Source: Squalus acanthias (taxonomy: Eukaryota). Taken from it: 64,000 nt of DNA. Under the pieces are notes generated by a model, which saw nothing but the letters and a program-made list of their open reading frames with translations, searched no databases and had not been told where the DNA came from. Each line of letters opens with the position of its first letter. Within the stretch, counting starts at the first letter, position 1. Positions 1-64,000 of the stretch are shown here, piece by piece. Made by a program: the position numbers and the translations under genes. The stretch lies in assembly GCA_030390025.1 (NCBI GenBank), contig CM059431.1, forward strand, positions 123,630,001 through 123,694,000. Direction: 5' to 3'.

Positions 1-681
1 AATCTAAAGGAAACCGATTTAGTAAGGGGTTTTGGGCGCGAAAAGGACAAAGGGGCTGAACAGTATAATTGGGGACCTATTCCCCCAAGACTCTCTCTCT
101 CTCTCTCTCTCTGGACTCTCTGACAATGCTCTCAACGCTCGCACAGCTCTCTCTCAGCTCTGTTCCAGCAAGACACCACAAGCCACGAGCAGTAGGAGGA
201 AAGAAGGCCAACAACTTCACAAGCAGACCAACAAGCAAGAAGAAACCAGAGCGACTGCCTCAGTGACCATCGGACACCTCGCGGCAACAAGGGCCTTACG
301 AAACCTTTTACTCAAAAGACTCTAAACCCTAACTCTCAACTGTCAAGGATTTGTTTGGTGAGCATTATCCCTGATCTCCTGAAACCAAAACCTAGCTAGA
401 TAGTGGGATTTTTGGGAGGGATATGTTTTTTTTTGTATATTGTCATTCTACCTCGCCTGTACCGTGTGTTCCCCAACCTGTGTTTAAGTGTTAAGTGTGT
501 TTTAAGTTTGTTACCTTTTTCTTTTAATAAAGTCAAAATTCTTTCATCAGAACCTGTTGTCTACTGCATCTTTGTTCACAACCCCTAAATAAGTCCAAAG
601 TCTAGAACCAGGGGTGTGGGAGCGATTCAAACCGCTCACTGAGTCAGAGGTGAAGGCTGACCCCACACACCACCCCCTACA
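1..681 (+). mobile_element. LTR (5'-truncated by window edge; solo or 3' LTR) of a second family related to the central provirus
   Basis: TATAAT (64-69), CT tract, GGTGAGCAT splice-donor motif (357-365), AATAAA (526-531), AAGTCCA..GTCTAGAACC plus hairpin, terminal ..CCCCTACA (681). Same order of signals as LTR 39004-40626. About 90% identical over ~340-681 to the reverse complement of 63075-63418. No convincing PBS follows. Confidence 0.75.
91..112 (+). repeat. (CT)11 microsatellite inside the LTR, ~20 nt after TATAAT
   Basis: Direct reading. Confidence 0.95.
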
Positions 682-18499: not shown

Positions 18500-19950
18500 T
18501 GTCAACTAAATATACCAGATTCATAGGAACGTTATCAAACTCACAGAACAGCAATGCCTTTGGGGATTTTGATTCACAAGGGAAGCAGTTTTAGAGCTGT
18601 GTAATATGTTGCAGGAGGACCTGCAGGCACACTGCAGAGTTTGCACAGTGACAACTGCCCCAAACTTTTTTGTCTCATGCTCATTCCAGGGGCCAGTAAG
18701 GACAACAACAGCATAAATCAGTTTGCCATGCATTGATGCACAAAACAGATGACTAATGCCTTGTTTACCAGAGGAAACAACTATATCACTTTCCCCACAG
18801 ATCCCAGGGAGTGACAGGCAAGGTTTCCATTGAATCACATATTTGCAAAAGTTCAGGGAGTCAATAATGACATGCATATAGCCCTTCATGCTCCACGAAC
18901 ACAGCAGTCCACCATACATGAACTGCAAGGACCATCTGCACTGGATATTACACGTCAATGCCTGAACCCAGGCAGCAGTCATGATTCACTCATTTTACAC
19001 CAGCCTACCTGATACCAGCAAGTTAAGGGCTGGAAACTGGACAATGAAGAACACTCACTGCTACCTTGGCTTATGGCCCCTGTGCGGAATAACTGCCCAT
19101 GAACCAAGCACAGATACAATGGCCCTGAAATTCGCCCCTCCGGCTTGCCGCGGGGGTAAGGATCGCGCGCGCACTTACCTACCGCGCCTGCCGTTGACCT
19201 CTCGGCCCACGGGAACTTCAGCTTCTGGGCCTGCTCCAAGTGCCAGCGTGCAGTGCTTGTGTGTCCCAGGGGCGTAGTTAGTGCGATGCGTCCCCTGGGA
19301 ACACGTGGGCCATGGAGAGCCAATGGCAGCAGACCATCTTTCATTCATAGACTTGACAGGAAGAGCTGTCAAATCTGTGAATTAAAATCGGCCCCAAAAG
19401 AACAGCTAAACTTCAAATAAATTTTTTTAAAAACCATCACATTTATAAAATAACTATAAGTTAAATAAATTAACTACTTTAAACAAACATTAAAATTTTT
19501 GAAAAAATTAAAATACTTTTTAACAGTGCTAAAAATAAACTTACCTTTCTTTAAAGTATCTAAAAAAGATAAACCTGTTGAAAAAATTTTTAAATTATAA
19601 TTAATTAAGCACTTACCTTGTTGAAAACGGGTCCTGCGCCTCCTTTTTAGAAGCGCAGGTTCTTCAATACTTACCCTCGCGTAGAAACCTGAAAAAAAAG
19701 CCTAAGTTTGCTGCGTGCGCGCAGCCTCTACCGCGCACGCAGTTCACCTCTGAACCGCTCCCTTCACGAGACCGGAAGTTCTGGTTTCCCGCGCACGCGC
19801 AGTGCATGCAGGAAACCGGCACTTCAGGACGCCTTACGGGTGAGTGCACAGCGCGTACTCACCCGGCAAGGGCTGAATTTTTGGCCCAATGAGTCGCATT
19901 AGAACCCTAGTCATGTGGGTTCTGGGCTCCTCCACACTTGCTGCAATGTA
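18500..19950 (+). pseudogene. Highly decayed Harbinger (HARBI1-like) transposase, interrupted by a MITE
   Basis: Remnants VQGVN..HIALHAP, PGSSHDSLIL, WLMAP; flanks of the MITE rejoin as AGA TAC AAT GAG TCG CAT = RYNESH, the motif in the better-preserved copies. Confidence 0.65.
19121..19887. mobile_element. Harbinger-type MITE, copy 1 (~770 bp)
   Basis: Imperfect TIRs ggccctgaaattc / gaatttttggccc; 3-bp TSD AAT; close paralog at 32348-33108. Confidence 0.85.
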
Positions 19951-39003: not shown

Positions 39004-39571
39004 TGTAGAATTCGCAATATATCGCGATTTTATTAATAAGGAGAAAACACATAGTTTCGTTCAAACAGCTTTTATTTCAGCAGAATGCTGGCAGGTTTAA
39101 AGTGGACACAAGCAGCCTGTAAAAATGGCCGCCGCACCTCGTGACAGAACATTCTAGACTTTTCAACAGGCAGACAAGATGGCGTTCCAATAAACATTTG
39201 TGCAAGATCGATTAAGAGTCAGCACAGTGAAGATAATACACGAGACATTATGGGTTTGCAGTATACACATAGATACTGAAATCGGTCTCCCAGGTGCAAA
39301 GGAAAGCCATTGTACCGAGTAATCAAGGGCCCATCCAAAAGACATTAATATGTAAAATCCCAACGACTCTACGATGAGAGAGCCGTTAGCAGGTAGTTAT
39401 ACAGGACACTTGGAAGCCCCAAAACCCCTCCAGGGAGATTACCGACCGATTTAACAATGGGAGAAATATTAACAGGTACTCAGACATTTACGAGTAGCCC
39501 CGAAACCCATTAAGAACGGAGATCACCCATACAAGACATTTGAGCGCCAGACCTTAAACAAAAGAATGGAC

Positions 39572-39660
39572 ATTATAGTTGGGCGGGAAACGGAAGATTT
39601 TGCACTATAATTGCAGGCTCCAAACCGTCCATCTTTCTCTTGCTGCTCTTATCATCGTGG
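39572..39660 (+). promoter_or_regulatory. Putative LTR core promoter: GC box, ETS-like CGGAAG, TATAAT, pyrimidine-rich start region
   Basis: gggcggg 39581-39587, cggaag 39591-39596, TATAAT 39606-39611; same TATAAT plus pyrimidine tract layout in LTR 1-681. YY1-like AAAATGGCCGCC / CAAGATGGCG upstream (39122, 39175). Confidence 0.6.
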
Positions 39661-40156
39661 CTGCTCCTGTGTACTCGTAGTTGGGCTTCTGCTTGCCTGT
39701 TGCCTCTTCTGAAAAGACTGTTGAACTTTCTGATCCGTTCGGATCTACCTCGTGTCGCGTAACGAAGACCTATATTGGTAACCGGTATCGGAACCAAAAA
39801 GGCCCGAGAAGAGATGAGATGAGATGAGATGAGAAGAGAGGAAGACCATATCCATCGCCACGGTCAGTAAATCCCGACTGCGCCTGTAGGTCGATTAGCC
39901 AAGTTTTCCTCGCCAGGAAGACTTCTTCGAACTTATAACGAAACATATCGTATCGATGATATCGACAACTGTGCTCGAAAAGTACCTGTTAAACCAACCA
40001 ACACAGGTCTTCATCACAGCAGACGTTCCAGCCTGCTAGCCGGAGCAGCAGAAGCAAGTAAACAAGTGGGACCAGGAGATCTCCTGACCGACACGTGGGT
40101 GCTGCGGTGAAAAACATCCGATCAGCTATTCGGAATTTCTCCGAGTTATCACGAGT

Positions 40157-40165
40157 GGTGAGCAT
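40157..40165 (+). promoter_or_regulatory. Putative major splice donor within LTR R region
   Basis: G|GTGAGCAT conserved in all four LTR copies in the window (358, 40158, 51187, 63398 minus). Confidence 0.6.
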
Positions 40166-40370
40166 GAGTCTCGAAATCCTACGAATCTAGTTTAGGATAG
40201 ATATTGATAGGGGAGGGTTTAAGGATTAAGGATATTTGTAATGTGTGCCCCTATTTACTTTGTGCCGTTCATTCCTCGTTTCCCTAAGATCGACTATATA
40301 ACTGTTTGTAAGATTGTACTGTCATTAATCTGTGCTTATGACATGTATTTCATAATCTTAAGTATCATGC

Positions 40371-40376
40371 AATAAA
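40371..40376 (+). terminator. Polyadenylation signal AATAAA (functional copy expected at 51400-51405)
   Basis: Positionally conserved in the second LTR family (526-531). Confidence 0.7.
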
Positions 40377-40444
40377 GATTTTCCATTTCGTACCATTCAA
40401 ACCGAGTCTACATGAGTTTCATCTCCATTACTGCTCTCGCATCT

Positions 40445-40626
40445 AAGTCCAGTGTCTAGAACCGTAAGGGAGAGTGATTCGAACCACTCACAGGTGTGTC
40501 TAGTGTTCCCAGACTGGCTGGAGACCAGAACAGGCAACAAGGCCTAGACCCGCACTGACATACAGGCTGCACAGAGCCGCGTGAATCTCACAGGCTGCGA
40601 GACACGCAGGGTCAGAATCCCTTACA
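40445..40626 (+). other. Structured U5 RNA element
   Basis: GTAAGGGA (40464-40471) pairs with terminal TCCCTTAC (40618-40625), enclosing stems GAGTG/CACTC, GTCTAG/CTAGAC, TGTTC/GAACA, CTGAC/GTCAG, GCGTG/CACGC. Confidence 0.6.
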
Positions 40627-40630
40627 GAAA

Positions 40631-42442
40631 ATGGCGACCGCGGCAGGACACTGGCAGCGAGAGGGTAGTGTGTTAGATTTTGGAATGACTGTACGAAATG
40701 TTATGCAGGAAAAGATAGCGGATTATGTGTTTGGAAAGGTTAATCTAACTAAGAAATGGATAAGTGAATTGTTAGCGGATAAGAGCCCACTAGAGGCAGC
40801 TGAAAGGTGGACAGATAGTAAAGAACATAGAAAGACACTTGAGAAAGCAGTCTGGCTTTTGTGTTACAAAAGGCAGGTTCAGATTTCAAACCAGACCATT
40901 ACAGCGCTAGTAGCTCGAATCAGTCATTTAGAGGGAGAAATGGATGAGAAGGTTTCTGGAGGGGAGGTGCTCATTAAGAATTTAAATGAGTTACACCAAG
41001 AAAGCCAGGAAGTCTCCAGTCACCTTAAAACAAGGATAGATTATCTCGAGTGCCAGGTCACTGAGGCAAAATTGAATGAGAGCAGGTTAAAGGAAAGATG
41101 TAACCGCCAAGCTGCCCAGATAAGAACTCAAGAAGAGAGCTTAACGGGGGTTAGGGCGGCATATAAGTTGGCCCTTGAGGATAAGTTTCAGGGAGCCGAT
41201 CATAGCGCCTGCCAAAGGGAGATAGAGCACCTCAAAAAGGCCGTGAACAATGCGAACGGCATGGTGTGCCTTATCAATCCGTCGGCACACCAGCCGCTAG
41301 TAAGTGAGAGATTTAAAAAATCCCCACCAAGTAAAGCAGAAGAAGTAGTAGCCACTGCGCCCTCCGCGCCACCCAGCTATTTGGAAACCTGGGTTAGGGA
41401 GGAAGCAATGGAAGAAACAAAAGAGCCCATTGAAAAAGAAGTAGGAAAGGGATCGTTGTATCCAGTAACGGGTATTAAAAGGGGCCCAAGCAGAAACGGT
41501 GGGGAAGAACCGGGGGATCTCCTCGGACAGCTGGTGTTGCCTCACAGTTCACATCAGCTGAGAGCTATGATAAATCACGTACGGAAGCTGACCGAGGCAG
41601 ACGACCCTTCCGTACATTTCCGAGAAGTTGAGCAAGCCGCAGCCATTAACGGCTGCGATGATGGGGAGACAGCAAAAATGCTGCTGTTCTCATTAGACAG
41701 CTCGGTCCTTCAGTGTCTCTCAGGCGAGAGCAAGAGGGGAACCAAGAGTTATGAGGAATTAAAGAATGAGGTCCTGGAAGTGTTGGGGGCGAACGACGAA
41801 GGTCCGTTTGCTAGAGTGGGACAGACAGTGCAGATGGAGGGAGAACCCCCGAAGGTTTTTGCCGACAGGCTGTGGCCAGTATATGAGCGCAGCTGCCTAG
41901 GTGCACCCGAGCGCGAAGATGTGGAAGGCACCGCTTTAACTCATTGGCTTAGGTGCATAATAGCCAACAGTTTACCAGCCGTCAGAGAGCAGGCAAAAGC
42001 ATGGTTTGATCCCAATGACCCCAACATTACGGAAGAGTCGGTCTTGAATCGACTCACGTTAGGTTATCGCAATATAAGGGGTATGGCAACACGTCCCCTT
42101 AAGGGAAGAGTACATGAGGTACGACCCGCAGCCCCGTATCAAAGAGAGTGGCATCAGGAGGGTAATCGCGCCCCACAGGCAAGTAATGCTTGTTACGGGT
42201 GTGGGAAGACAGGGCACTGGCGCAAGCATTGCAGGAACCCTTGGAAGGATTCCAAGGATAAAAATCCCGCGGTCCGAGCCCAGGCGCCTGTCCCGGCTAA
42301 GGAAGCTAGTGCACCCACCCCTCCTGACGACCTAGAAGCAGTGTTAGGAGCCATGCGCAAGCTGGTCTTGAATGCGCGTGGACAGGTGACGGTCGCAACC
42401 GGCCCCGTAGGTGCCGCAGGACCGTCTAATAGTACCCCATGA
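40631..42442 (+). CDS. gag: Gag polyprotein (603 aa): N-terminal coiled coil, PSAPPSY late motif, capsid-like region, one CCHC knuckle
   Basis: Intact ORF; CYGCGKTGHWRKHC (42191-42232); heptad-rich residues ~90-205; Kozak AAAATGG. Confidence 0.93.
   Translation: MATAAGHWQREGSVLDFGMTVRNVMQEKIADYVFGKVNLTKKWISELLADKSPLEAAERWTDSKEHRKTLEKAVWLLCYKRQVQISNQTITALVARISHLEGEMDEKVSGGEVLIKNLNELHQESQEVSSHLKTRIDYLECQVTEAKLNESRLKERCNRQAAQIRTQEESLTGVRAAYKLALEDKFQGADHSACQREIEHLKKAVNNANGMVCLINPSAHQPLVSERFKKSPPSKAEEVVATAPSAPPSYLETWVREEAMEETKEPIEKEVGKGSLYPVTGIKRGPSRNGGEEPGDLLGQLVLPHSSHQLRAMINHVRKLTEADDPSVHFREVEQAAAINGCDDGETAKMLLFSLDSSVLQCLSGESKRGTKSYEELKNEVLEVLGANDEGPFARVGQTVQMEGEPPKVFADRLWPVYERSCLGAPEREDVEGTALTHWLRCIIANSLPAVREQAKAWFDPNDPNITEESVLNRLTLGYRNIRGMATRPLKGRVHEVRPAAPYQREWHQEGNRAPQASNACYGCGKTGHWRKHCRNPWKDSKDKNPAVRAQAPVPAKEASAPTPPDDLEAVLGAMRKLVLNARGQVTVATGPVGAAGPSNSTP
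40632..40649 (+). promoter_or_regulatory. Primer binding site, tRNA-Arg (UCG/CCG type)
   Basis: TGGCGACCGCGGCAGGAC is the exact complement of the vertebrate tRNA-Arg 3' end GTCCTGCCGCGGTCG-CCA as I recall it; 5 nt (GAAAA) downstream of the LTR end. Confidence 0.9.
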
Positions 42443-45400
42443 CTAGAACCGGCGCAGCCCGTCTACCTGTGTCCGCTTAGCTATGATGCGTGGAGGCGAC
42501 CTGTGGTGGAGATGGAGGTAGAGAAACAGAAGGGTAGTTATTTGTTGGACACGGGAGCTTCTTGCACCATAATCCATACAGATAACCCTTTTGACTCGCC
42601 GCTATCTACCAAGGTCCCATTCACGTTAGCAGGGTTCACAGGAAAAGAACAGGCTGGCACGTTTTCCCTTCCGCTATCCATTCGTTTAGGAACACTTCGC
42701 CTTAAGTGGAAGTGTATACTGATGGCATGGCAAAAGGGGGGTGGAAGAGGTATTCTCGGGTCCGATCTCCTAGCGGGACACGGGATCCTCGTGGACCTCA
42801 GAAATCACTGTCTCTGGGGGGCTAAAGGTGAAAAAGGCGAGGTATTAGTGATTCCGGGGGAGGAAGAAACAGGGGTCCTGTGTACCGTACAGCCATCCGG
42901 AGGCTACGACCTCAGGCTCATGGTCGCAGATGTCCCAACGGACATGCAAACGTACGTGTCAGATAATATGCACGCGTTTGCAACCCACAAGCACGATTGT
43001 GGGAGAGTGGTCGGGTTTGAGGTCAGCGTAGATGGGGACCCCATGACCCGACCCCAAAAGCAGTATAACTTCCCCAAAGAAGCAGAACCCGATATGGAGA
43101 CAGCAATGTCCTCCTTGGTGCAGCAGGGCGTGTTGAGGCCGATAGCCACACACGTGAACTCCCCATTATGGCCGGTTAGGAAGCCGGATAATTCGTGGAG
43201 AGCCACGGTGGACTACAGAGTCCTTAACAGTAACATTCCCGCCTGCGCGCCCACAGTAGCAGCAGTTGCCGACCTAATAGGGAGCATCCCAGCGTCCGCG
43301 ACCACGTTCACGGTGCTGGATATCTCGAACGGTTTTTGGTCCATCCCGCTGCGGCGAGAGGACCAGTACAAGTTTGCCTTTACTTTCAAAGGACAACAGT
43401 ACACGTGGAACTGTCTGCCACAGGGTTTCCACAATAGCCCCAGTATTTTTCATCAGTGTATGGCAGGAAGTTTAAAGGAGTTTAGTCAGCCCAATCAGAT
43501 AGTACAGTATGTGGATGATTTGCTCCTATTTACGGACTCAAGGGAGGAGCACGGACCACTACTGGACGAGTTATTGGAGCTGTTAGCGAGAAAGGGTTTT
43601 AAAATAAACCCTAAGAAAGCACGTATCGGTCAACGGGAAGTAAAATTCCTGGGACTGACCATACGCGCTGGGGAAAGAGCCATAGACAAAGCAAGGAGGG
43701 AGTCGGTGCAAGAATTACCGATTCCCAACAACGTAAGGGGTGTGAGGTCCTTCTTGGGACTGACCGGTTACTGCAGGGATTTTATCGAAGATTATGCGGC
43801 CACAGCGGCGCCGCTCCTCCGACTCCTCCATAAGGGGGTGGAGTGGTTTTGGGACGAGGGCTGCCAAGCAGCCTTCGAGAAGTTAAAAGGGGATCTGCAG
43901 ACCGCGCCAGCCTTAGGGGCCATAGATGGGGGGAAGGAGTTTTTCCTGGAGGTAGCTGCCAGCGGAGACAGCTTAAGCGCCGTGCTGCTCCAAGAGCATC
44001 ACGGCAAGCTGAGGCCGGTTGTCTATTCATCCAGGGTGTTAACGGATGTGGAGAGAAGTTTCTCCAATTGCGAAAGGCACCTTTTAGCCACGCATTGGGC
44101 TGTGAAAAGATCAGCGATCTTCACAGGGCTCTCTCCCATCACTCTCCTCACACATCACACACCAACTAAGATGCTTCTGGATGGGAGGATTAAAGACGGG
44201 ACCGTAAGCAGCGCACGCATTGCGCGTTGGACCCTTCTTCTCTCCCAGTTGGATCTTAGAGTAAAAGGTCTTTGCGAGCCCAGGCTTGCGGCCAATTTGG
44301 TATACCCCGGTATAGCCCACCGGTGTTCGGTGGAAGGGGTGTGGGACGTCAACATAGGTTTACGGGCCGGGATACATCCCACTGGGCGCGAGATTTATGT
44401 TGATGGGTCTAGCACAGTATCCGCTGGCGAGCGACTCACAGGGTGTGGAGTTTATGACCCTGCGGCAGACCTTGCCCTGGCGATCAAGCTCCCTAGCACC
44501 ATGAGCGCGCAGCAAGCTGAGCTGTCTGCCGTGGTGTACGTTGTGACCCACCCAGACATTTTCCCAACCCCATACACGATTTGCTCGGACAGTATGTTCA
44601 CCTGCAACTCGTGTACGGAATACCTGGCCATTTGGTCCCGCCGCTGATACACCTCCGCGGACGGGCGACCTTTAACGGTGAAGCCCTTGCTGGAAAAGAT
44701 CTTAGCAGCAGCAGTAGGGGAGGAAGGAGAGATTTTCATCCATAAGGTGAAGGCTCACTCCTCCACAGAGCCCCGTGGGGAAGGCAACCGGCAGGCGGAT
44801 GCGCTTGCCAGGGAAGGTGCCCGCGACGGCACTTTCTGGAACCCCTATAGGACCGGACCCATAGCAGCGGTCCGAGGCGGGGACGGGAATTCCGGGAACC
44901 CCAGGGTAGCATTGCCCCTAGACCTTAAGACCGTCCAAACCCAGGATCCCGCCCTAAAAGCAGTCCTAAAAACGATTGCTGAGGGGAGGCAGGTAGAAGG
45001 TCCGTACAGTACGGCAACCCTTTCAGTTAAGGAAGGCATGCTGTTCCGCGAGGAGCAGTGGGTTGTGCCGCAGCAGCACAGGAGGGAATTCCTCCAGTTG
45101 GCTCACGAGGGACCAGGGGCAGGGCACCCCGGGCCCGAGGTTACCTGGCAACGGGTAGAGCAAGCGGGATGGTGGCCAGGGCTCAGGGAACAAGTCCGCG
45201 AGTTCTGCGCAAACTGTCTTGTGTGCGCTGCAAACAACCCAGACCCCCAGAAAAGGAAGGTGCCCATGGGACACGTAAGAAGGGTAGAGGGACCATGGCA
45301 ATCGATACAGATCGACTATATAGGACCCCTGCCCACCACCCAGGGAGGTTATAAGTACTGCCTCGTCCTGGTGGATGTGTTTTCCAAGTGGGTGGAAGCC

Positions 45401-46966
45401 TTCCCTTGTCGAACAGCTACGGCACTGGGAACAGCAAAAATCTTGGTCCGGGAAGTGTTCTCGCGGTGGGGACTTCCCCGTTTTGTGGAGTCAGACCAAG
45501 GGAGTCATTTCACCGGCCAGGTGATGCAGACCACCCTCATGCTTTTGGGCATTGAAGGGAAGTGGCACGTAGCACACAATCCCCAGTCATCCGGGATTGT
45601 TGAACGTATGAACCGGACCCTGAAGGAGAAATTGAGGAAAGAGACTTGGAACTCGCCCCAAAAATGGGCGGAAGTTCTGCCTTTAGTCCTCATGGGGGTC
45701 CGGGCCAGTCAGTCAAAAAGTACGGGGTACTCCCCGCACGAGGTAATGACCGGGAGGCTCATGCGAACCCCCACCCATGTGCTAGCCCCGGTGCTCACTG
45801 AGGGTCAGCTCCAGGAGATAAGCAGGGACAAGTTCGCCCAGACTCTCTTGGAGCGCCTGAAGCAAGTTTATGAGCAGGCGGCTGGGAACATGGGAAGGCA
45901 GCATCAGGGCAATCGCTTGTTGCTGGAACCCCGCAAAACGCGGGAATGGGAAGTGGGAGACCAGGTCATGGTCAGAAACTACGCCAGAGTAGGGAGTCTG
46001 GAACCACTGTATATGGGACCCTACAACATTGTAGACAAGGCAAGTCCCATGGTTTACGCCGTAAAAGTACCTCGGCGCACTAAGTGGTTCCACATAAACC
46101 AATGCAAACTGTACCAGCCAGGTGCGCAAGGGAAAACTACAGGGGTAAATCCCGCCAACGGGAAAGCACAGCCCCAGGTAGGACCACAAGGCACACAGGC
46201 AGGCATAGCAGCTTGCATCAGGGGAAGGGACATCCCGGACGATCATGCAGCGTTTTTCTGGAATTGGGGGTTAGATGAGGAAGAATTCAGGGTACCCGGG
46301 TCAGATGAGGATAGTGCAGATGAGAATAGTGATGATGACGGGTGGTTCCTGAGGAACGGTCTGGAGGGAATGGGGGCTGTAGGTAGAGATCCACACAGGG
46401 TGGACACACGAGCTGCAGGTCCCGAAGACAGGAGGGAGGAGCTAGAGGAGGCAGGGCCAGCCGCTATGGGAGCACAGAGAGTACCGGTGTGGCTCCCAGA
46501 GATGTGGCCGCCCGCTTTGAACGACCAGTCCTCGGGGGAGGCAGAGATCACGAGTGAAGGGCCGCCTGCTGGGCCAAGCAGGGCGGAGCCACGAACTGCC
46601 AGCCCCGAGGTTAGGGAGGCGGAGTCAGCGGAGGCGGAGCCAGCGACTGTGATGGAACCCCAGGTCATCCCGATGGAAGTCTCGGAACCCGGTCCGTCCG
46701 TCACGGAACCCCCGCCCATAGCAACTCCCCGTAGGTCAAGTAGAGAACCCCAGCCCAGGAGGATGTGGTCATGTCCCCAGACTGCCCCAAGGCGAAAATT
46801 TAAGGTTAAGATAACCCAGTTACAGACCGGCCACATCGCAGCAGTAACAGGCTGCGGCAGATCAGAGGGAAGGGTCAGCGCAGCAACAGGCTGCGGCAGA
46901 TCAGAGGGAAGGGTCAGTGCCCTCCCACCGTCGGGAAGAGCTCGCAGCAGCCTTCTCAGAATTTAA
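42443..46966 (+). CDS. pol: Pol (PR-RT-tether-RNase H-IN), in frame with gag; one premature TGA at 44645-44647
   Basis: LLDTGA (42548), LPQG, YVDD (43508), degenerate RNase H (EVAAS..ERHLLA..LTHH), active-type RNase H (YVDGS..QAEL..SDS..KVKAH..GNRQAD), IN HHCC + QIDY/SDQG/VERMN + GPY. Both ORF halves are in the same frame. Confidence 0.95.
46841..46918 (+). repeat. 39-bp in-frame tandem duplication at the end of pol
   Basis: gcag(t/c)aacaggctgcggcagatcagagggaagggtcag(c/t) x2 = AVTGCGRSEGRVS / AATGCGRSEGRVS. Confidence 0.95.
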
Positions 46967-47252
46967 AGGGGCCGCCCTGAGAACGGGCAGCACTGTATAG
47001 TAAGAAGTTCTAAGTTTTAAGTTTATAGTTCAAGGTTAAGTATATAGTTTTAATAAGGTTAAGTTTGTAGTGTTTTTAACAGAAAACGATAAAATGATGG
47101 GAGTTTTAATGATAGGTTTAGTTAAAGTTTATTCAGCGAACGTTGAAGTTTACGTGAGGCGAGGTCAGGGGACCCGCTCACCCTTCACAAAAGCCAGAGA
47201 CTCTTGCGAGGCTGGCTACCTCATTCTATCTGATCACAGGAACCAAGGAAGG

Positions 47253-49592
47253 ATGGAACGAATTCTAGTATTGCTCGGGGTAATCGGATGTGGATTGGCC
47301 TATCGAGGCCGCACCAAGGATGTCGTGGTGTTTGGATGTTCCGGGGACACGGCCCCCATCGCGGTGGATGGGACCGGAAGACGGGAGGCAGAGGAGACCA
47401 GCACCTATTTCCACAAGGGAAGGTGGCCAGGATGGCTGGGAACGAACTCAACGGAGTATTCTAGCACATCGGGGTTTGCCTACAAAGAGACTTCTTTACT
47501 GTGCCCCAAAGTAAGGATCATCGCATCCAGGATCAGCGTCACCGTCGGCAAACGGATTTGTTTGACTTGTAGTGGGAAGGTCCCATTGAGCCGATGGTGG
47601 TGGCTGCGAAAGCTGAGCAACACTATGAGGAACTCGTCGGTCGAGTGGGAACGACTGGGTAATAATACCCATCGGACAATTACGGGGACAGACGGACAAG
47701 TGAAAGTCTGTTGGGACAAATGGTGGGAACCGGATGAGGGAATTTATGTATGTATGTGGGGGTCAAAGTACGTTTGCCCCAAAGGCATCTCCATATTTTT
47801 CATTAATCAATGGCAGGATAACGGACAGGGGATGAGGTGGGATGCGAGCACCAGGGGGTGCGGAGCCCCATTCTCCCCGATCCCAGTAAATGCCACTGAG
47901 CTCATTACGCGCCCATGCAAAGCCCCGCCCACGATTCCGATGGTTCTAGCTGAGGAAGAAGGGTGCCCTAAAACTAGTAAGGGACCCGGGAATGGTTTGG
48001 TACTGGTCCCCACAGACCAGATACTATTTCAGGGGGTACATTACGCGGTGGCCTCGGTGATTTTAAATCTCACTCAGGTGCGGTTACCAGAGTGGTGCCC
48101 CAAAAAGACGGAACAGTTGTATCAGGTCCTGTTGACCAAGATGTTCAGACAATTTTACGAATTCGATTTCGCGGAAATTGATAAAACAAGTTTGTACACC
48201 GCACCACAAGAAGTTTTGAATCAAGCAGGGAGGCAAAGAAGGGGTTTGGTGAACGATGCGTTCACTGCTTTTAACACAGGTACATCTGTGGTCAACGCTC
48301 TAGACAGTGTGGAGCTGCAGACCCAGATTAATGGTTTAAAGACACAATTAAAAGACATTCTAACAGATGAGAATAAAGTGGTAGGGTCGGGTCTACACGA
48401 GGACCAAGCCATGACTCTCCATTTAAAGGAAATTATAGCAGAGTTGGAGAAACATGCAAAGACGGTAAATGCCCTGATTAGGGAAGATCGGAATGCATCC
48501 GATCAAGCTGCGCAGAACAAGGTGTGCGTGCTTTACGGGGCGTGGTTACTGGGCGAGGGCCGCAGTAATTTGGAGGATTTGGTTCCGTCCTGGATAAGTA
48601 ACAAACACCTGCGGGCGCTCCACCCTTTTCAGAACGCATTAAGTCCGTGCCAACTCAGGCTAGCTTCAGAAGCGTACCCAGTCCCCGTGGACTGCGGACG
48701 ATCAAACCATACCATTATGGGAATAGTATTACGCATGCCGGTTTTGGGCGACACAGCAAAGCCCGCCCCGGTGTATCGGGTAGAGAACATTGGTGTCATT
48801 CAGGGGGGAGCCCACATTCGTTATGCTGCGGTTCCACCTTACGTCATCCGCTGGGAGCAAACGATGACAGGTACAGATCTCTCTGGTTGTCGTGGCAGGG
48901 GAGCACACATAATACTGTGCCCCCAGCACTTGAATGCCTTTTTAACACCACAGTGCGGGTTCAGAACGACTGGCGCCAAGTCCATGAATTGCACCATGGA
49001 GGCAATGGCACAAGATCATGTGCCTCCGCAGGTAGCATACATCGGGGGTGGAACATATTGTGTTACCACTGCAGCGCAACACTACCAGCATGGAAACCGT
49101 AGCCGGTGTCCGGTGAGTGACAGCAGTTTCTGTTTTAAACCCAGGGCGGAAGTTCAAGTAGCACAACAGCGAATTATCCCAATCCCTGAACCATCCACTG
49201 TTCACCTCACAGTAAAAGAGAATTTCACCGACTTGCAGCGATTCGTCGCGCATTTTGGATACCTCATTCCCCCTCTCCCTGAACACCTCACCAAACTTTT
49301 AAAAGCCGTCGCGGTGTCACAGAAACATTTTTACACATTAGAGCAGAAAACTGTTGAAATAGGAACAGACATTTTGGATGTAGTAGTTCCACCGTGGTGG
49401 AATCTGTTCACTAATATTGAAGTGCCTTCATGGATCAGAATAGCCTCCCACATTTTAGTCGTATGCCAAGTTTTCATTGTAGTGTACCTATTGGTCGTAC
49501 ATTGTAAAAGAGACAAACGCCTCACCAAGCATGAAAACACGGGAGAGTGGCGAGAACGTTACGTGCGCGTGCACGATGAAAGCACCGTGTGA
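47253..49592 (+). CDS. env: Envelope glycoprotein (779 aa): signal peptide, Ig-like domain, F-like class I fusion protein, TM, tail
   Basis: MERILVLLGVIGCGLA signal right after a candidate acceptor (cacag| 47239); LTC..WWW..DEGIYVC; furin RQRR (48231-48242); fusion peptide plus heptad repeat; Cys-rich region; TM 49440-49505. Confidence 0.9.
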   Translation: MERILVLLGVIGCGLAYRGRTKDVVVFGCSGDTAPIAVDGTGRREAEETSTYFHKGRWPGWLGTNSTEYSSTSGFAYKETSLLCPKVRIIASRISVTVGKRICLTCSGKVPLSRWWWLRKLSNTMRNSSVEWERLGNNTHRTITGTDGQVKVCWDKWWEPDEGIYVCMWGSKYVCPKGISIFFINQWQDNGQGMRWDASTRGCGAPFSPIPVNATELITRPCKAPPTIPMVLAEEEGCPKTSKGPGNGLVLVPTDQILFQGVHYAVASVILNLTQVRLPEWCPKKTEQLYQVLLTKMFRQFYEFDFAEIDKTSLYTAPQEVLNQAGRQRRGLVNDAFTAFNTGTSVVNALDSVELQTQINGLKTQLKDILTDENKVVGSGLHEDQAMTLHLKEIIAELEKHAKTVNALIREDRNASDQAAQNKVCVLYGAWLLGEGRSNLEDLVPSWISNKHLRALHPFQNALSPCQLRLASEAYPVPVDCGRSNHTIMGIVLRMPVLGDTAKPAPVYRVENIGVIQGGAHIRYAAVPPYVIRWEQTMTGTDLSGCRGRGAHIILCPQHLNAFLTPQCGFRTTGAKSMNCTMEAMAQDHVPPQVAYIGGGTYCVTTAAQHYQHGNRSRCPVSDSSFCFKPRAEVQVAQQRIIPIPEPSTVHLTVKENFTDLQRFVAHFGYLIPPLPEHLTKLLKAVAVSQKHFYTLEQKTVEIGTDILDVVVPPWWNLFTNIEVPSWIRIASHILVVCQVFIVVYLLVVHCKRDKRLTKHENTGEWRERYVRVHDESTV

Positions 49593-50023
49593 TCGGAAAA
49601 TGGCGTCACTCCCGCGCGCCACGTGCGCTGCGGAAGCTTGTACTCAATGATGATTTTTCAGAGATTGTAAATACGTTGGAAACTCGACATGTTTTAAGAG
49701 TTGGGGTTTGATTATTTTGGTGATGGTGTTGATTGTTTGGTTTTGGGTTTTGTTTTTCCTTTCCCTGAATAAAAGATGAATATACAGGTGATACGAGAGG
49801 CATCGGCCTGGTTACGCCGGGAAGGAAAACAAGTGGTGTAAGTTTAAGGGCAAATAATGCCTACGGTGATATAAAATGTAATTTTCTTGGGAAATAAGGA
49901 CGACACAGAGACCCTAGCTAGGTTAAATTTATGGGATTAATTTGCTGGATTCGGAGAGAAATCGAGATAATATTGCTCACCACTATGATTTTTGATACGA
50001 TAAGCGGAGTTATTCGCATCAAC

Positions 50024-50032
50024 AGGAGGGAC
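50024..50032 (+). promoter_or_regulatory. Polypurine tract (short)
   Basis: AGGAGGGAC immediately 5' of the 3' LTR TG. Confidence 0.7.
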
Positions 50033-51655
50033 TGTAGAATTCGCAATATATCGCGATTTTATTAATAAGGAGAAAACACAGAGTTTCGTTCAAACAGCTT
50101 TTATTTCAGCAGAATGCTGGCAGGTTTAAAGTGGACACAAGCAGCCTGTAAAAATGGCCGCCGCACCTCGTGACAGAACATTCTAGACTTTTCAACAGGC
50201 AGACAAGATGGCGTTCCAATAAACATTTGTGCAAGATCGATTAAGAGTCAGCACAGTGAAGATAATACACGAGACATTATGGGTTTGCAGTATACACATA
50301 GATACTGAAATCGGTCTCCCAGGTACAAAGGAAAGCCATTGTACCGAGTAATCAAGGGCCCATCCAAAAGACATTAATATGTAAAATCCCAACGACTCTA
50401 CGATGAGAGAGCCGTTAGCAGGTAGTTATACAGGACACTTGGAAGCCCCAAAACCCCTCCAGGGAGATTACCGACCGATTTAACAATGGGAGAAATATTA
50501 ACAGGTACTCAGACATTTACGAGTAGCCCCGAAACCCATTAAGAACGGAGATCACCCATACAAGACATTTGAGCGCCAGACCTTAAACAAAAGAATGGAC
50601 ATTATAGTTGGGCGGGAAACGGAAGATTTTGCACTATAATTACAGGCTCCAAACCGTCCATCTTTCTCTTGCTGCTCTTATCATCGTGGCTGCTCCTGTG
50701 TACTCGTAGTTGGGCTTCTGCTTGCCTGTTGCCTCTTCTGAAAAGACTGTTGAACTTTCTGATCCGTTCGGATCTACCTCGTGTCGCGTAACGAAGACCT
50801 ATATTGGTAACCGGTATCGGAACCAAAAAGGCCCGAGAAGAGATGAGATGAGATGAGATGAGAAGAAAGGAAGACCATATCCATCGCCACGGTCAGTAAA
50901 TCCCGACCGCGCCTGTAGGTCGATTAGCCAAGTTTTCCTCGCCAGGAAGACTTCTTCGAACTTATAACGAAACATATCGTATCGATGATATCGACAACTG
51001 TGCTCGAAAAGTACCTGTTAAACCAACCAACACAGGTCTTCATCACAGCAGACGTTCCAGCCTGCTAGCCGGAGCAGCAGAAGCAAGTAAACAAGTGGGA
51101 CCAGGAGATCTCCTGACCGACACGTGGGTGCTGCGGTGAAAAACATCCGATCAGCTATTCGGAATTTCTCCGAGTTATCACGAGTGGTGAGCATGAGTCT
51201 CGAAATCCTACGAATCTAGTTTAGGATAGATATTGATAGGGGAGGGTTTAAGGATTAAGGATATTTGTAATGTGTGCCCCTATTTACTTTGTGCCGTTCG
51301 TTCCTCGTTTCCCTAAGATCGACTATATAACTGTTTGTAAGATTGTACTGTCATTAATCTGTGCTTATGACATGTATTTCATAATCTTAAGTATCATGCA
51401 ATAAAGATTTTCCATTTCGTACCATTCAAACCGAGTCTACATGAGTTTCATCTCCATTACTGCTCTCGCATCTAAGTCCAGTGTCTAGAACCGTAAGGGA
51501 GAGTGATTCGAACCACTCACAGGTGTGTCTAGTGTTCCCAGACTGGCTGGAGACCAGAACAGGCAACAAGGCCTAGACCCGCACTGACATACAGGCTGCA
51601 CAGAGCCGCGTGAATCTCACAGGCTGCGAGACACGCAGGGTCAGAATCCCTTACA
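50033..51655 (+). repeat. 3' LTR (1623 bp)
   Basis: Direct repeat of 39004-40626. Confidence 0.97.
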
Positions 51656-52657
51656 TCCTCCTCCTCCTCCTCAGGTGGTGCACCAATCCCTGGTGGCATT
51701 GGCTGGGTCCTCAGGATTGCCAGGTTGTGAAGCAAGTGAGTACTGCAGGGCTCCTCCTGAATGGTCCAGACAGTGGAACCATTGCTTGAGCACGCCGATC
51801 GTCTACTCAATGATGTTCCTGGTGGCGCTATGGCTCTCATTATACCGCAGCTCGGCAGGGGTGTTGGGGTTACGGAGCGGTGTCATCAGCCAGGTGCAGA
51901 GTGGATAACCCATTTCCCCGAGGAGCCATCCAATTGGGTGATGCGGTGCCTGGAAAAGGTCTGGCACACCAGTCTGGCACAGGATGAAAGCATTGTGGCT
52001 GCTGCCAGGAGAGCGGGCATTGACGGCGAGTATGAGCTGTCTGTGGTCACAGACCAACTGCACATTTAAGGAGTGGAACCCCTTGCGGTTTCGGAAAACC
52101 TCTGCATTTTCATGCGGTGCCCACAATGCCACATGTGTGCAGTCAACGGCGCCCTGCACCATGGGGAAGCCCACTATCCTAGCAAAGCCACATGCGCGTT
52201 CATGCTGTTTGGCCCGGGTCATGGAGAAAGAGATGTACTGGTATCTCCTTTTATACAGGGCATTTGTCACCTCCCGGATACAGCAATGGACAGCGAACTG
52301 GGAGATATTGGCGATGTCCCCAGTCGATGCTTGAAAGGAGCCACTGGCATAAAAGTTCAGAGCCACTGTCACCTTCGCTGCCACCGACAGAGACGTCCTG
52401 GTCCTCAGTTGAGGCTGCAGATCTGGTTGCAGCAGATGGCAGAGCTCAGTGACCACCTCCTTGCTGAAGCACAGCCTGCGCAAACACTGCTTCTCAGACA
52501 AATGAATGTAGGTGAATTGCTCCCGGAATACCCTGGGAGGGAAAGGTCTCCTGTGCAGAGGCCTGTTGGCCCTCCTCCCTCTGGCCATGTTTGCCACTCT
52601 CTCTCTGCGTCTCTGATGCCTCCGATTCTGCAGGTGCAAGATGACGCCCTGAATCAA
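51656..52657 (-). pseudogene. Harbinger transposase (HARBI1-like DDE_Tnp_4), disrupted
   Basis: CLRRLCFSK..KVTVALNFYASGSFQ..VQGAVDCTHV..NRKGFHSLNVQLVCD..PGSSHNAF..WLMTP..RYNESH; stop, deletion and proviral insertion near the 3' end. Confidence 0.92.
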
Positions 52658-53947: not shown

Positions 53948-56530
53948 GGGGGTAAAAAATCGGTACCTTAGCACCTCCTATTAGTGTCAGCAGATGCCGC
54001 TAACGGGGTGCTGGAACAGTATCGCTGGGGCGAGGCGAATGCAACACCGCACGCCAAATCCCACCACCCCCCCTGCAGTGCCACCGCTATCAGTTATCGC
54101 CAGGAGCGTCAATGCCAGGTGGATCGTGACGTCAGTGAGTGTGCAATGCTCACTAAGCACCCAAACTGCGAAATTGATTGTCGCCACCTACCTTAGCGCC
54201 TGGAGTAAACAGCGACAGGGAGAGCTGGCATGAAGCACCAGGAAGCCGGCTCCAGGAACGTTATTTAAAGGGGTCATCAGTAATGAGTCGCAGCTGTAGG
54301 TTAGTAGAGTTTCAGTGCTTTCTTGTCAGTTTCAAGAAAGTCCAACAGTCTCATTCTATAATTTCAAGGTTATTTAGTATCAGGAGTGTTGTGGCAACTA
54401 AAAAGTAATTACATTTATTCTTTAAAAAAAAATCAAACTGCTGCAGTTGGTTACATTAATGGTGGCTGTACTAGCAGTCAACCTTGCCCTTCAGGATCGA
54501 TGGCGGAGGGAGCGGAGGCAGCAAGAAAGACTGGAACATGTGGCCAGAGGGAGGAGGAAAGCAATCAGGGCTCTCAGCAGCAAGCCTTACCCTCTGAGGG
54601 TATTCTGAGAGAACTTCTACCTCCAATTAAGCGAGGAGCAGTGTATTAGAAGGCTCCGCTTCGCCAAGGAGGTGGTCACAGAACTCTGCCACCTCCAACA
54701 AGCAGACCTCCAGCCTCAGATTAGGGTGACCACAGCTCTCTCAGTGGCAGTCAAGGTTACCTTTGCCCTCAATTTCTTCGCCAGCAGATCCGTCCAGTCT
54801 GCAACAAGAGATATCGCTAACATCTCACAGTTCGCCATCCATCGCTGCATCCGGGAGGTCACAGAGACTCCCTACAGAAGGAGAAGGGACTACATTTCCT
54901 TCCCCATCACCAGAGAGAAACAGGACGAGCGTGCATGTGGCTTTGCCAGGATAGCAGGACTCCCCATGGTGCAGGGCGCCATTGACTGCACCCACATAGC
55001 TTAGCGGGCACCGCATAACAATCCTAAGATCTTCCGTAACCGCAAAGGCTACCACTCACTTAATGTGCAGTTGGTGTGCAACCCCAGACAGCTAATCCTC
55101 AATTTCAATGCCCGCTATCCTGGCAGCAGCCACGATGCCTTCATCCTGCGCCAGACCGGTGTGCAAGCACTCTTCCAGCCACCATGTCAAGCTCATGGCT
55201 GGCTACTCGGAGACAAGGGCTATCCGCTCTCCACCTGGCTCATGACTCCCCTTCACAACCCCAACACTCCTACCCTGCAGTCATATAATGAGAGCCATGC
55301 TGCCACCAGGAACATCATCGTGCAGACCATCAGCCTGCAGAAGCAACAGTTCCACTGCCTTGACCGCTCGGTAGGAGCCCTCCAGTACTCGGCTGAGTGG
55401 GTGTCCCATTTCGTGGTGGTCTGCTGCATGCTCCACAACTTGGCCATCATGAGGGACCAGCCCTCGCCACCAGGGATTGTGGGACCACCTCAGGAAGTGG
55501 GAGAGGAGGAGGAGGAGGACGACGATGAGGAGAACGATGAGGAACAGGAGCGAGGGAGGAGGCAGCCACTCAATCGGACTTCCAGAAGAGTGGTCTGTGC
55601 CCACCTCATCAGACTGTGGTTCGAATGAATTAAACCCCAGATTCCCATCATTCCATCCCTGTTGCAGGCCATTTCACAGCGCAAAACTCAAATGCGACAC
55701 ACCACAAAAGAATCCAAACTGCATTAATAAATTTATCAAAAGTCAGTGAACACATATTTACAACAAAAATATGAACTATTCACCCTTGTGCAATCCCTTA
55801 GTGCCTCTCATTACTGTGCCTTTGCCTACTCTAGTGCTCCTACGAAGTGTTGGCCCAGTGGCTGCAGCACGGCTGGTGGAAGGCTGTTGAGTGTCTGTGC
55901 GGGAGACGTCAGATGGCCTTGCAGGATGCCCTCGACCAGCTCTGGGCCTGGAAGGCCTGGCTGTAGACTTCACCACCTCAGCATGGGCGGCAGCAGTCTG
56001 GGCTGGCTGGATGACAGGCAGTGACAAGGGCAATGGCGGAGTAGCAGTGGTGGGAGCAGGAATGCTGTCATCCTGAGAGAAGACAGTAGGTTCCTGCTCC
56101 ACTGACCCACTGCCACTCCCCTGGGGCAGCACCTCAGCATCCCTAGCAAACTGTTGGAGCAAAGATTGCTGACCTGCTGCGACACCGTGAAAGCCCCGGT
56201 CGACGGTGGTAGAGTCTGAGATTGGATGCCACCAAGCAAAGACTCCAGTACAGCACTAAGACATGGCGTCGCTTCTGCCTGTGCTGCAATGGAAGCTGCC
56301 AGATCGCCCATCACATGCGGCATCAGGTCTGGGTCACCATGGTCTAACTGGGAGTCTACAATCCTTTGCAGACTGGAAATGATGGGCTCCATGGTGTGTG
56401 CAGAGCCTATTTGGCGGCGGTCTCCTCCACACTCCTTACCATTGCCGAGAGGCTCTCAGGCACCCTTGCCATTGCATCTATCATCTCCGTGTGCATGTCC
56501 ATCACCATTCTTCTAAACGCCTTCCCAAAT
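53948..56530. mobile_element. Harbinger element (transposase on +, partner-gene remnant on -), right part truncated
   Basis: Left end gggggtaaaaaatcgg; convergent gene remnants; 55780-56190 homologous to 14050-14510. Confidence 0.7.
54459..55628 (+). pseudogene. Harbinger transposase pseudogene (paralog of 51656-52657)
   Basis: VKVTFALNFFAS..VQGAIDCTHIA*..YPGSSHDAFIL..LLGDKGYP..CCMLHNL; stops and frameshift. Confidence 0.92.
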
Positions 56531-63074: not shown

Positions 63075-64000
63075 TGTAGGGGGTGGTGTGGTAGGGGTCA
63101 GCCTCACCTCTGACTTAGTGAGCAGTTCGAATCGCTCCCACGCCCCTGGTTCTAGACCTTGGACTTATTTGGGGGTTGTGAACAAAGATGCAGTAGACAA
63201 CAGGTTTGGATGAAAGAGTTTTGACTTTTATTAAAAGAAAAAGGTAACAAACTTAAAACACACATAACACTTAAACAGGTTGGGGAACACATGGTACAGG
63301 CGAGGGAGAATGACAATATACCAAAAAAAACTTATCCCTCCCAAAAATCCCACTATCTAGCTAAGTTTTGATTTCAGGAGATCAGGGATAATGCTCACCA
63401 AACAGGGGTTTTGACAGTTCGAAATCCACCCAGGTAAGTTGATTGCGATTTTGGGGTACTCTCTTTTTGCCCTTTGGGGCCTGCCGTCCCCACATGGTAC
63501 GGGTCTGTGGAATCTGTGAGGGCTCCTCAGTCGGGTGGAGTCCACAGATGCGGTAGGGCGCGGTTGTGGAATTATCAGGTAAGTACCCGATTTCTTTGCT
63601 TTTAGCTGTAGGTTTAGAGTCTTTGCATGCAAGTCTTACCCAGGGGTAAGCCAGGAGTAGCTGTAGGGTTGGCGATTCTTTGTGTTTCCCCTGGTTGGCT
63701 GATTTAGGTCGTGGTTGCCTGGTGGTTTATCGTTGCGCGGGGCCTTGGTCCCCGCGGTACCTTTGAATGGCGGTCTACCTCGTGGAGCCAATGGTGGCTC
63801 TGGCAGTTGATTTGTTGCATTGGAGGCCTGTCGGGGCTGGACCGTGTGCTGAGCGATGCCGACTCGCTCCCAGTGGTCTCAGCTCTAGCCCTTGCCTGGC
63901 CTTGTCTGTCGCTGCCTCTGATCTCACCCCGGGTCTGCCTCGTGGCCTTGCTGCTTCTCTCCTCCTCCTGCTCGTGTCGTGTAGCCCTCTGTAGCTGTGA
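63075..64000 (-). mobile_element. LTR of the second family on the minus strand (extends beyond window)
   Basis: Reverse complement ends ..CCCCCTACA at 63075; carries GGTGAGCAT, AATAAA and the U5 hairpin; ~90% identical to 340-681. Confidence 0.75.

Follow-up and report, generated by a model that had tools for sequence, protein, structure and literature searches.

A covarying U5–leader stem and a T-arm-complementary linker at the primer binding site of a Squalus acanthias retrovirus lineage: a candidate reverse-transcription initiation junction

The window analysed here is a 64,000-nucleotide stretch of the Squalus acanthias genome, and it contains a provirus whose two long terminal repeats (LTRs) show 6 differences in 1623 nt (Table 1). 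An 18-nt primer binding site (PBS) for a host tRNA adjoins the 5′ LTR, the reference gene for this tRNA-Arg(UCG) being locus L061. The gag stop codon TGA is followed by CTAG (42440-42446), presumably a read-through-like context, and an in-frame stop (44645-44647) interrupts pol in this copy. An ATG in the gag frame (40631-40633 in the window) overlaps the first bases of the PBS in families A and B, and 11 further ATGs lie within the 1 kb upstream of it. The words TATAAT (39606) and AATAAA (40371) point to an R region of approximately 750 nt, which would hold 11 upstream ATGs. The window also carries two family-B LTRs, neither of which has a PBS behind it, and, beside the provirus, an inverted repeat of 774 nt (51738-52511 and 54617-55390) whose arms are 75% complementary and 2.1 kb apart.

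Table 1. Positions of the provirus, its genes and the U5 and leader elements in the window
Feature	Positions	Strand	Remarks
Provirus	39004-51655	+	gag-pol-env between LTRs
5′ LTR, family A	39004-40626	+	1623 nt, TG...CA, 4-bp target duplication TCCT
Outer U5–leader helix, 5′ arm	40426-40440	+	pairs with 40657-40670
Inner U5–leader helix, 5′ arm	40449-40457	+	holds variable 'nn'; pairs with 40646-40654
Linker GAACC	40459-40463	+	complementary to tRNA-Arg 52-56; mostly single-stranded, opposite PBS; candidate T-loop contact
Terminal U5 stem, 5′ arm	40464-40471	+	pairs with 40618-40625
Hairpin	40472-40489	+	18-nt near-palindrome; TCGAACC at 40479-40485; lineages A, B, C1 only
Terminal stem 3′ arm and LTR end (att)	40618-40626	+	
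PBS	40632-40649	+	18/18 complementary to host tRNA-Arg(UCG) with CCA
Leader, also first gag codons	40650-40670	+	3′ arms of inner and outer helices
gag	40631-42442	+	stop context TGA-CTAG, pol continues in frame
pol	42443-46966	+	protease, RT, tether, RNase H, integrase
env frame	47040-49592	+	predicted fold resembles paramyxovirus/pneumovirus F
3′ LTR	50033-51655	+	U5 motifs identical in kind (51474 on); no PBS or leader behind
U5 end, family-B LTR without PBS	591-681	+	motif 591-609; hairpin 620-637, loop changed
U5 end, second family-B LTR without PBS	63075-63166	-	motif 63166-63148; hairpin 63137-63120

Structural comparison of the predicted Env model (mean pLDDT 56.5) with Foldseek retrieved the F protein of hPIV3 as the best match (E 2.8e-12). 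Pfam and sequence searches gave no match between Env and the F family, and the only named relatives of Env came from a skate and a sawshark. An Env that resembles the F protein of Mononegavirales by its predicted fold, the gag-pol-env arrangement between LTRs, and a tether followed by RNase H, the last being common to all retroviruses, are likenesses to the lokiretroviruses as these are described in the available text of PMC7947760. The two differ in the RT motif, which is LPQG in the window and PFGYANSP in the lokiretroviral RTs listed there; in the text available from the supplement of that study, PFGYANSP occurs at least 31 times and PQGFHNSP not at all. The RT sequence evidence leans against a placement inside the lokiretroviral clade, and in a tree of 108 RT sequences, none of them lokiretroviral, the window RT grouped with LPQG-type RTs of amphibians and the coelacanth. 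The combination of an F-type Env with an LPQG RT of the ordinary retroviral kind (42443-49592) may represent an env/pol mosaic or an undescribed lineage. The one available table row of PMC7947760 on cartilaginous-fish genomes holds no lokiretrovirus, and the available text of that paper mentions neither a PBS nor a tRNA. A motif search of the supplement, limited by line breaks, returned no Arg PBS and one Lys-type PBS among the matches listed. Viral contigs yielded one weak related match (L117, 39 residues, E 5e-4), and a search of metagenomes for the LTR-end/PBS pattern gave no match.

The U5 region of these LTRs had first attracted attention through a 19-nt motif common to otherwise dissimilar LTRs, and the motif is indeed present at 40445, 51474, 591 and, on the minus strand, 63166. 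The window holds four exact matches and one with three mismatches, against 0.16 expected, and the genome of 3.7 billion bases holds 9,651 exact matches, against 1 for the reversed control. When the A and B LTRs were compared, the sole block above noise was the one that contains the motif (50 columns, 76%, E 1.8e-4). The word TAGAACC is further found at 19900 and at the gag–pol junction (42444), and GAAC(C/T) occurs 115 times on the plus strand of the window, so that GAAC(C/T) means little apart from its position. The first bases of the motif, AAGTC (40445-40449), are unpaired in the viral fold and complementary to tRNA bases 30-34; they are kept in family A and most of family B and not in C or D. 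Searches of the whole window with Rfam at the gathering score and with ARAGORN returned no match, and the folding score of the entire domain gave a weak signal (z -2.13 for the window copy; for the two B LTRs, taken together with their flanks, -0.11 and 0.09).

For the comparisons below, all of which draw on lineages from a single genome, 62 PBS-bearing copies, gathered as sets of 43 and 19, were divided on the basis of their sequences among lineages A, B1-B3, C1, C2, D, E, F, G and H. The gag genes of the main lineages A-D are homologous, with approximately 45-65% DNA identity between them; E and F appear by eye to be remoter gag relatives, and G and H are unplaced. Rows for L091 and L093 (internal PBS-like repeats) and L109 (one of 20 stretches in its set, with no PBS in a usable position) were omitted, L081 was excluded from the gag tree, in which L089 and L092 sit on long branches, and the genome-wide family counts leave out family F.

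By covariation, the strongest feature of the locus is a stem between U5 and the leader (40426-40670), which the original prediction had overlooked and which extends beyond the stretch that it described. This stem is composed of an inner and an outer helix, the 3′ partner of the inner one being PBS bases 15-18 together with leader positions +1 to +5. The two variable bases of the 19-nt motif change with the first leader bases (in A, GT faces AC; in B1, AG faces CT; in B3, AA faces TT), and lineages C, D, G and H form an equivalent inner helix from other sequences, with an outer helix behind it. Across the lineages, the inner-helix pair at leader +1 is T-A, T-G, C-G, G-C or A-T and that at leader +2 is G-C, A-T, T-A or C-G, and within family A one pair reads A-U, G-U and G-C in the window copy, L083 and L111, respectively. 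The outer helix is rewritten with compensation in L111, L116 and families B, C and D. Some A and B2 subfamilies tolerate U-U at leader +1.

Scored over nine representatives, 43 of 45 cells were paired (permutation mean 29.1; 2 of 362,880 permutations as high) and, over five deep lineages, 24 of 25 cells (1 of 120 permutations), figures that are optimistic because representatives and registers were picked after inspection of the data and relatedness was ignored. Each row's own arm and own leader formed the best duplex in all eight rows compared, and seven of them beat shuffled leaders (0-20 of 1000 shuffles), the remaining row, L067, being one for which the arm had been wrongly picked (113 of 1000). 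When the 9-nt segment that best pairs with the PBS end was sought blindly, it came to lie 0-3 nt before GA(A/T)YY in 43 of the 62 PBS-bearing copies; the 19 failures included all of E (3), F (1) and G (1) as well as four family-A copies. The predicted probability of the inner stem fell below 0.8 in 5 of 15 copies. Covariation makes a U5–leader stem that encloses the PBS clear in A-D, G and H, and not in E and F. It resides chiefly in this stem; the hairpin on which the original prediction was centred contributes one family-level two-sided change. Together, the comparisons support a conserved and selected RNA structure that is linked to the PBS and resembles those of avian sarcoma-leukosis virus (ASLV) and HIV, and it is better backed than could be seen when it was first proposed.

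If the ATG that overlaps the PBS in A and B were used, both the PBS and the leader helix would be coding. The gag ATG of C and D lies closely 3′ of the PBS without overlap, and in a B2 subfamily (L036, L112, L114) the PBS-overlapping ATG is out of the gag frame, which suggests that a later Met is the true gag start. The out-of-frame ATG of the B2 subfamily further argues that the U5–leader helix is not a coding artefact.

The elements of the junction follow one another in this order: the U5–leader stem, the linker GAAC(C/U), the terminal stem with its variable insert, a short A-rich spacer and the PBS. U5 words complementary to the T arm of the primer were found in two places, GAACC in the linker (tRNA 52-56) and TCGAACC in the hairpin (52-58). 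The linker is retained as GAAC(C/U) in all well-sampled lineages and, counted by eye, was kept in 91 (C2) and 96 (D) of the first 100 LTRs listed per family. Its variants, GAACU in C and D and GAAUC in a single G copy, could still form wobble pairs with G52/G53; at these two tRNA bases the linker is wobble-compatible in A-D and G and mismatched in H and F, the GAUCC of family H amounting to one mismatch. Save at G52/G53, the linker cannot covary with the primer, since GAAC is the complement of a stretch that does not vary between tRNAs. The linker was predicted to be unpaired with a probability of 0.53-0.94 in 15 of 15 copies. In three-strand folding with the PBS pairing forced, linker–tRNA pairing was at most 0.14 in 13 of the 15 copies and 0.76 and 1.00 in two C copies, in a model in which the freed tRNA refolds on itself and which comprises neither modified bases nor proteins. 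The candidate contact is just 5 bp long, and the A before GAAC is usually kept despite its mismatch with G57. Since the energies give no support for a stable contact, any pairing between linker and tRNA would be transient or protein-helped.

We consider a reverse-transcription initiation junction of the ASLV/HIV type, belonging to a young and abundant retrovirus lineage, to be the probable explanation of this arrangement. In the genomic RNA, U5 would pair both with the leader just behind the PBS, through the two helices, and with the LTR end, through the terminal stem, such that the PBS would sit in an internal loop facing the linker. tRNA-Arg(UCG) would then anneal to the PBS, displacing the three to four stem pairs over the PBS end, and turn at the stem, where its freed T-arm bases 52-56 could pair with the linker across the loop in a nested geometry. 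Such a contact may position or activate the primer, as has been proposed for avian retroviruses and for the primer activation signal (PAS) of HIV-1. The parts of this model that the comparisons demonstrate are the U5–leader stem, the constant linker and the identity of the PBS. Of the original prediction, a conserved structure linked to the PBS is upheld, but its core lies in the linker between two stems and not in the hairpin loop.

Alternatively, the stems may be real and serve packaging or translation control, with GAAC(C/U) as a contact for a protein such as Gag, RT or a host helicase, a possibility that we rate as rather unlikely. Because gag starts in or just behind the PBS and almost no leader is left, U5 may carry a packaging signal, and the ATG that overlaps the PBS in A and B or follows it closely in C and D, the 11 ATGs of the preceding 1 kb and the low predicted linker–tRNA pairing are all in line with such a function, as is the binding of RNA helicase A to the PBS junction of HIV-1 described in the available text of PMC11181671. 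However, a packaging or translation element would leave unexplained why the sole constant single-stranded word is a T-loop complement within reach of the tRNA, and why the linker variants are of the wobble type. Far less probable still is a conserved splice acceptor at the AG ahead of AAC, with the donor-like GGTGAGCAT (40157) of families A and B as its partner; this reading ranks lowest in our estimation. In A-D, an AG does follow a pyrimidine-rich stretch just ahead of the linker, and the donor-like word occurs in both LTR families (E 3.9, not significant alone). Yet none of the seven joints listed from three contig sets that span the element was of the GT..AG type, a check that is weak in that these contigs possibly represent DNA or have dropped rare forms, no RNA data set was listed as containing the element and the only true RNA run (X15) gave 0 reads, and a B2 subfamily (L036, L105, L112, L114) has no AG at this position. 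As a separate observation, the A and B LTRs share GATCTCCTGA in addition to the donor-like word, with the order of the two swapped.

The terminal stem that completes the preferred junction model forms as originally written, with 40464-40471 pairing to 40618-40625, and stops 6 nt before the PBS. For the window copy, 1 of 500 shuffles gave an equally strong stem. Among the representatives, the stem beat shuffles at the 5% level in 5 of 14 and was convincing in A, and that of family B is mostly a run of G against a run of C.

The hairpin inserted behind the 5′ arm of the terminal stem had been the centre of the original prediction. All three hairpins (those of the provirus, of 620-637 and of the 63075 LTR) have the sequences given there, and TCGAACC in the provirus is the exact complement of tRNA-Arg(UCG) bases 52-58, adjoining the 18 bases paired to the PBS. 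The loop at 620-637 does not share this match, as it reads TCAAACC. Among 73 distinct LTR copies of A, B and C1, 70 have the loop, with TCAAACC in 4 and TTGAACC in 5 of the 70; both changes fall at a CpG and are suggestive of decay in dead copies. Compensation in the hairpin stem was confirmed for one family-level two-sided change (C-G in 48 and T-A in 16 of the 70) and for one change in a single C1 copy, and is otherwise thin. The G-U pair of the 63075 LTR, which had been thought to favour the sense strand, occurs in 7 of 70 copies and at a CpG, and is for this reason weak evidence for that strand. In the window copy, the hairpin had a predicted probability of 0.41 and was absent from the minimum-energy fold. 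It was missing in the six C2 and six D copies examined, and these two lineages were amplified without it (387 and 358 LTR matches, respectively); in the gag tree, a single loss suffices (C2 plus D, support 0.94). The hairpin is an accessory confined to lineages A, B and C1.

What the loop does is a question in which its sequence cannot by itself separate T-loop complementarity, a self-complementary dimer site and an antisense B box. The function first proposed, in which the loop is a primer-activation site that captures tRNA bases 52-58, here as a second and transient T-loop site, is plausible, though we would stop short of calling it probable. The 7-nt exact complement is contiguous with the PBS match, two of the three plus-strand TCGAACC words of the window are LTR copies, and it is TCGAACC, and not the palindrome, that B and C1 share with the two amplified variants of family A. 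Loop capture has to contend with the lack of the loop in the sampled C2 and D copies, with a topology that requires a pseudoknot or an opened terminal stem, and with the T-loop being bound to the D-loop in folded tRNA. Moreover, with the PBS fully paired, the loop would sit on the far side of the terminal stem, at a distance that tRNA base 58 could hardly span, a geometric argument that also speaks for the alternative of a dimer-initiation site (DIS).

For the DIS alternative, which we regard as possible but doubtful, the UUCGAA loop is self-complementary and, as in the HIV-1 DIS, an extended duplex of the 18-mer is possible; since the T-loop is itself nearly palindromic, the T-loop match could be a by-product. 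The near-palindromic hairpin also means that a role in dimerisation would compete with T-loop pairing. The predicted self-duplex (-20 to -25 kcal/mol, compared with -5 to -9 for the hairpin), the perfect 18-nt palindrome of the L019 hairpin, a predicted loop exposure of 0.69-1.00 and the DIS anatomy given in the available text of PMC7599994 are consistent with dimerisation. An extended self-duplex was predicted for five of five hairpins, as is expected for any such hairpin. In contrast, a GGTCGAACC variant, found in 7,521 family-A LTRs (approximately 60% of the 12,561 matched by a wider family-A pattern whose flanks differ slightly), drops the 6-nt palindrome, with 4 nt left, and retains TCGAACC, a pattern more in line with the loop-capture reading or with a B box. 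An exposed 6-nt palindromic loop is accordingly kept in B, C1 and part of A only and not throughout the family; the hexamer is A/U-rich, with weak predicted kissing (-4.1), and the hairpin is absent from the sampled C2 and D copies.

Three further readings of the hairpin were weighed. It may be a contact for another protein or have no role, which we hold to be slightly less probable than dimerisation. An unlikely combination would make it a switch for two partners, in which the exposed UCGAA loop forms a kissing complex with its counterpart on a second genome or, alternatively, captures the T-loop of tRNA-Arg and passes the tRNA to the linker and PBS, thereby coupling dimerisation to primer loading within one 18-nt element; in family B, further words complementary to the anticodon and D arms would enlarge it to a primer trap with several boxes, all ahead of the PBS. 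Finally, a DNA-level element, with one or more antisense B boxes acting through TFIIIC as an insulator or Pol III promoter, seems quite improbable. The B box consensus is GTTCRANNC, and the antisense strand of the hairpin fits it in both family-A variants and in B. The first motif misfits the consensus, no A box was found by eye, the hairpin is lost in C2 and D, and a B box would leave the covarying long-range stem unexplained, given that this stem includes the leader and can therefore form only in transcripts of the 5′ LTR. Among the papers listed by a literature search, none offered a precedent for a B box in the U5 of an endogenous retrovirus.

Family B contains additional words of its own. 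In L058, L052, L078, L067 and L076, AGTCAGA complements the anticodon arm of the primer (27-33, up to 27-35), and B3 has an additional D-arm word (13-18), in tRNA order. The U5 insert of family B could be a functionless relic of a captured antisense tRNA or of a tRNA-SINE piece, a view to which we assign very little weight. In five B copies, its words complementary to tRNA 27-35 and 13-18 lie collinearly behind the loop and were equalled in 5, 35, 110, 4 and 4 of 1000 shuffles, and alignment with SINE heads or the tRNA gave a marginal signal, 3 of 15 comparisons falling below 3%; on the other hand, the remaining 12 alignments did not, no such words rose above chance in six A, C and D copies, and the loop has been retained over deep gag divergence. 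In L078, an antisense tRNA-derived repeat stands just upstream of the U5 structure.

Aiyar in 1992 and Morris in 1999 and 2002 reportedly described in ASLV a U5–leader stem, a U5-IR stem and a U5-TΨC contact with tRNA-Trp, and the stem names and geometry of ASLV serve as background here. According to the available descriptions, the junction resembles that of ASLV in that the PBS is framed by U5–leader and terminal U5 stems and a U5 word complements the T-loop region of the primer. It differs in its primer, tRNA-Arg(UCG) instead of tRNA-Trp, in a stem that covers the last three to four PBS bases, in terminal-stem inserts of approximately 20 to 150 nt, in the repetition of this word within a hairpin in some lineages and in a gag start in or near the PBS; the junction described here is, moreover, derived from sequence comparison. 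The U5-TΨC contact of avian sarcoma virus is covered in a review (PMC3185550). As in the PAS of HIV-1 (available text of PMC1865047, PMC11181671 and PMC3185550), a T-arm-complementary U5 word lies upstream of the PBS beside an extended PBS stem; the PAS is 8 nt long and masked in a stem, whereas the present word has 5 nt and is predicted to be mostly unpaired just 3′ of the stem. The pseudopalindromic hairpin with a 6-nt self-complementary loop and an extended duplex is a likeness to the DIS of HIV-1, MoMuLV and ASLV (L3), as far as described in the available text of PMC7599994, from which it departs in its A/U-rich hexamer, reduced to 4 nt in most family-A LTRs, its location in U5 upstream of the PBS and its absence from two lineages.

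The junction would, in this light, broaden a known mechanism and is not a new type of element. Of the reviews PMC11181671 and PMC3185550, one states that a PAS has been found in all retroviral genomes, and the available parts of PMC3185550 and PMC3185528 present the PAS model as disputed, SHAPE having missed the contact in HIV-1; the parts consulted of PMC3592414, PMC4974528 and bioRxiv 2021.11.23.469661 held nothing decisive for the comparison. Among the papers listed by a literature search, none gave an account of a U5 structure in this lineage. How general a contact between U5 and the T arm is in priming is a matter of dispute, most of the evidence having been obtained with mutants of HIV-1 and avian viruses. 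Here, one genome offers many lineages that share a primer and have had their flanking helix rewritten, while the T-loop-complementary word stays. This amounts to natural comparative support from a distant fish lineage whose envelope is of the F type, and the RNA is short enough to allow virus-free testing.

Several observations were made on the PBS and the primer themselves. Six family-B copies (L033, L041, L043, L045, L052 and L060) have altered PBS bases 15-18, under the U5–leader stem, and several of them share an identical change. A C2 subfamily (L091, L093, L110) carries a second, degenerate LTR end and PBS-like copy within U5, approximately 57 nt upstream of the genuine PBS. Genome-wide, 426 matches to the 3′ end of the primer were counted, with an intron-like insert in some of the tRNA genes, and on G000:C26 (38.99-42.2 Mb; L062-L066) tRNA-Arg(UCG) and tRNA-Ser(GCU) form long tandem arrays with a period of approximately 1.62 kb. 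The primer tRNA of a very abundant endogenous retrovirus family is, therefore, itself highly amplified.
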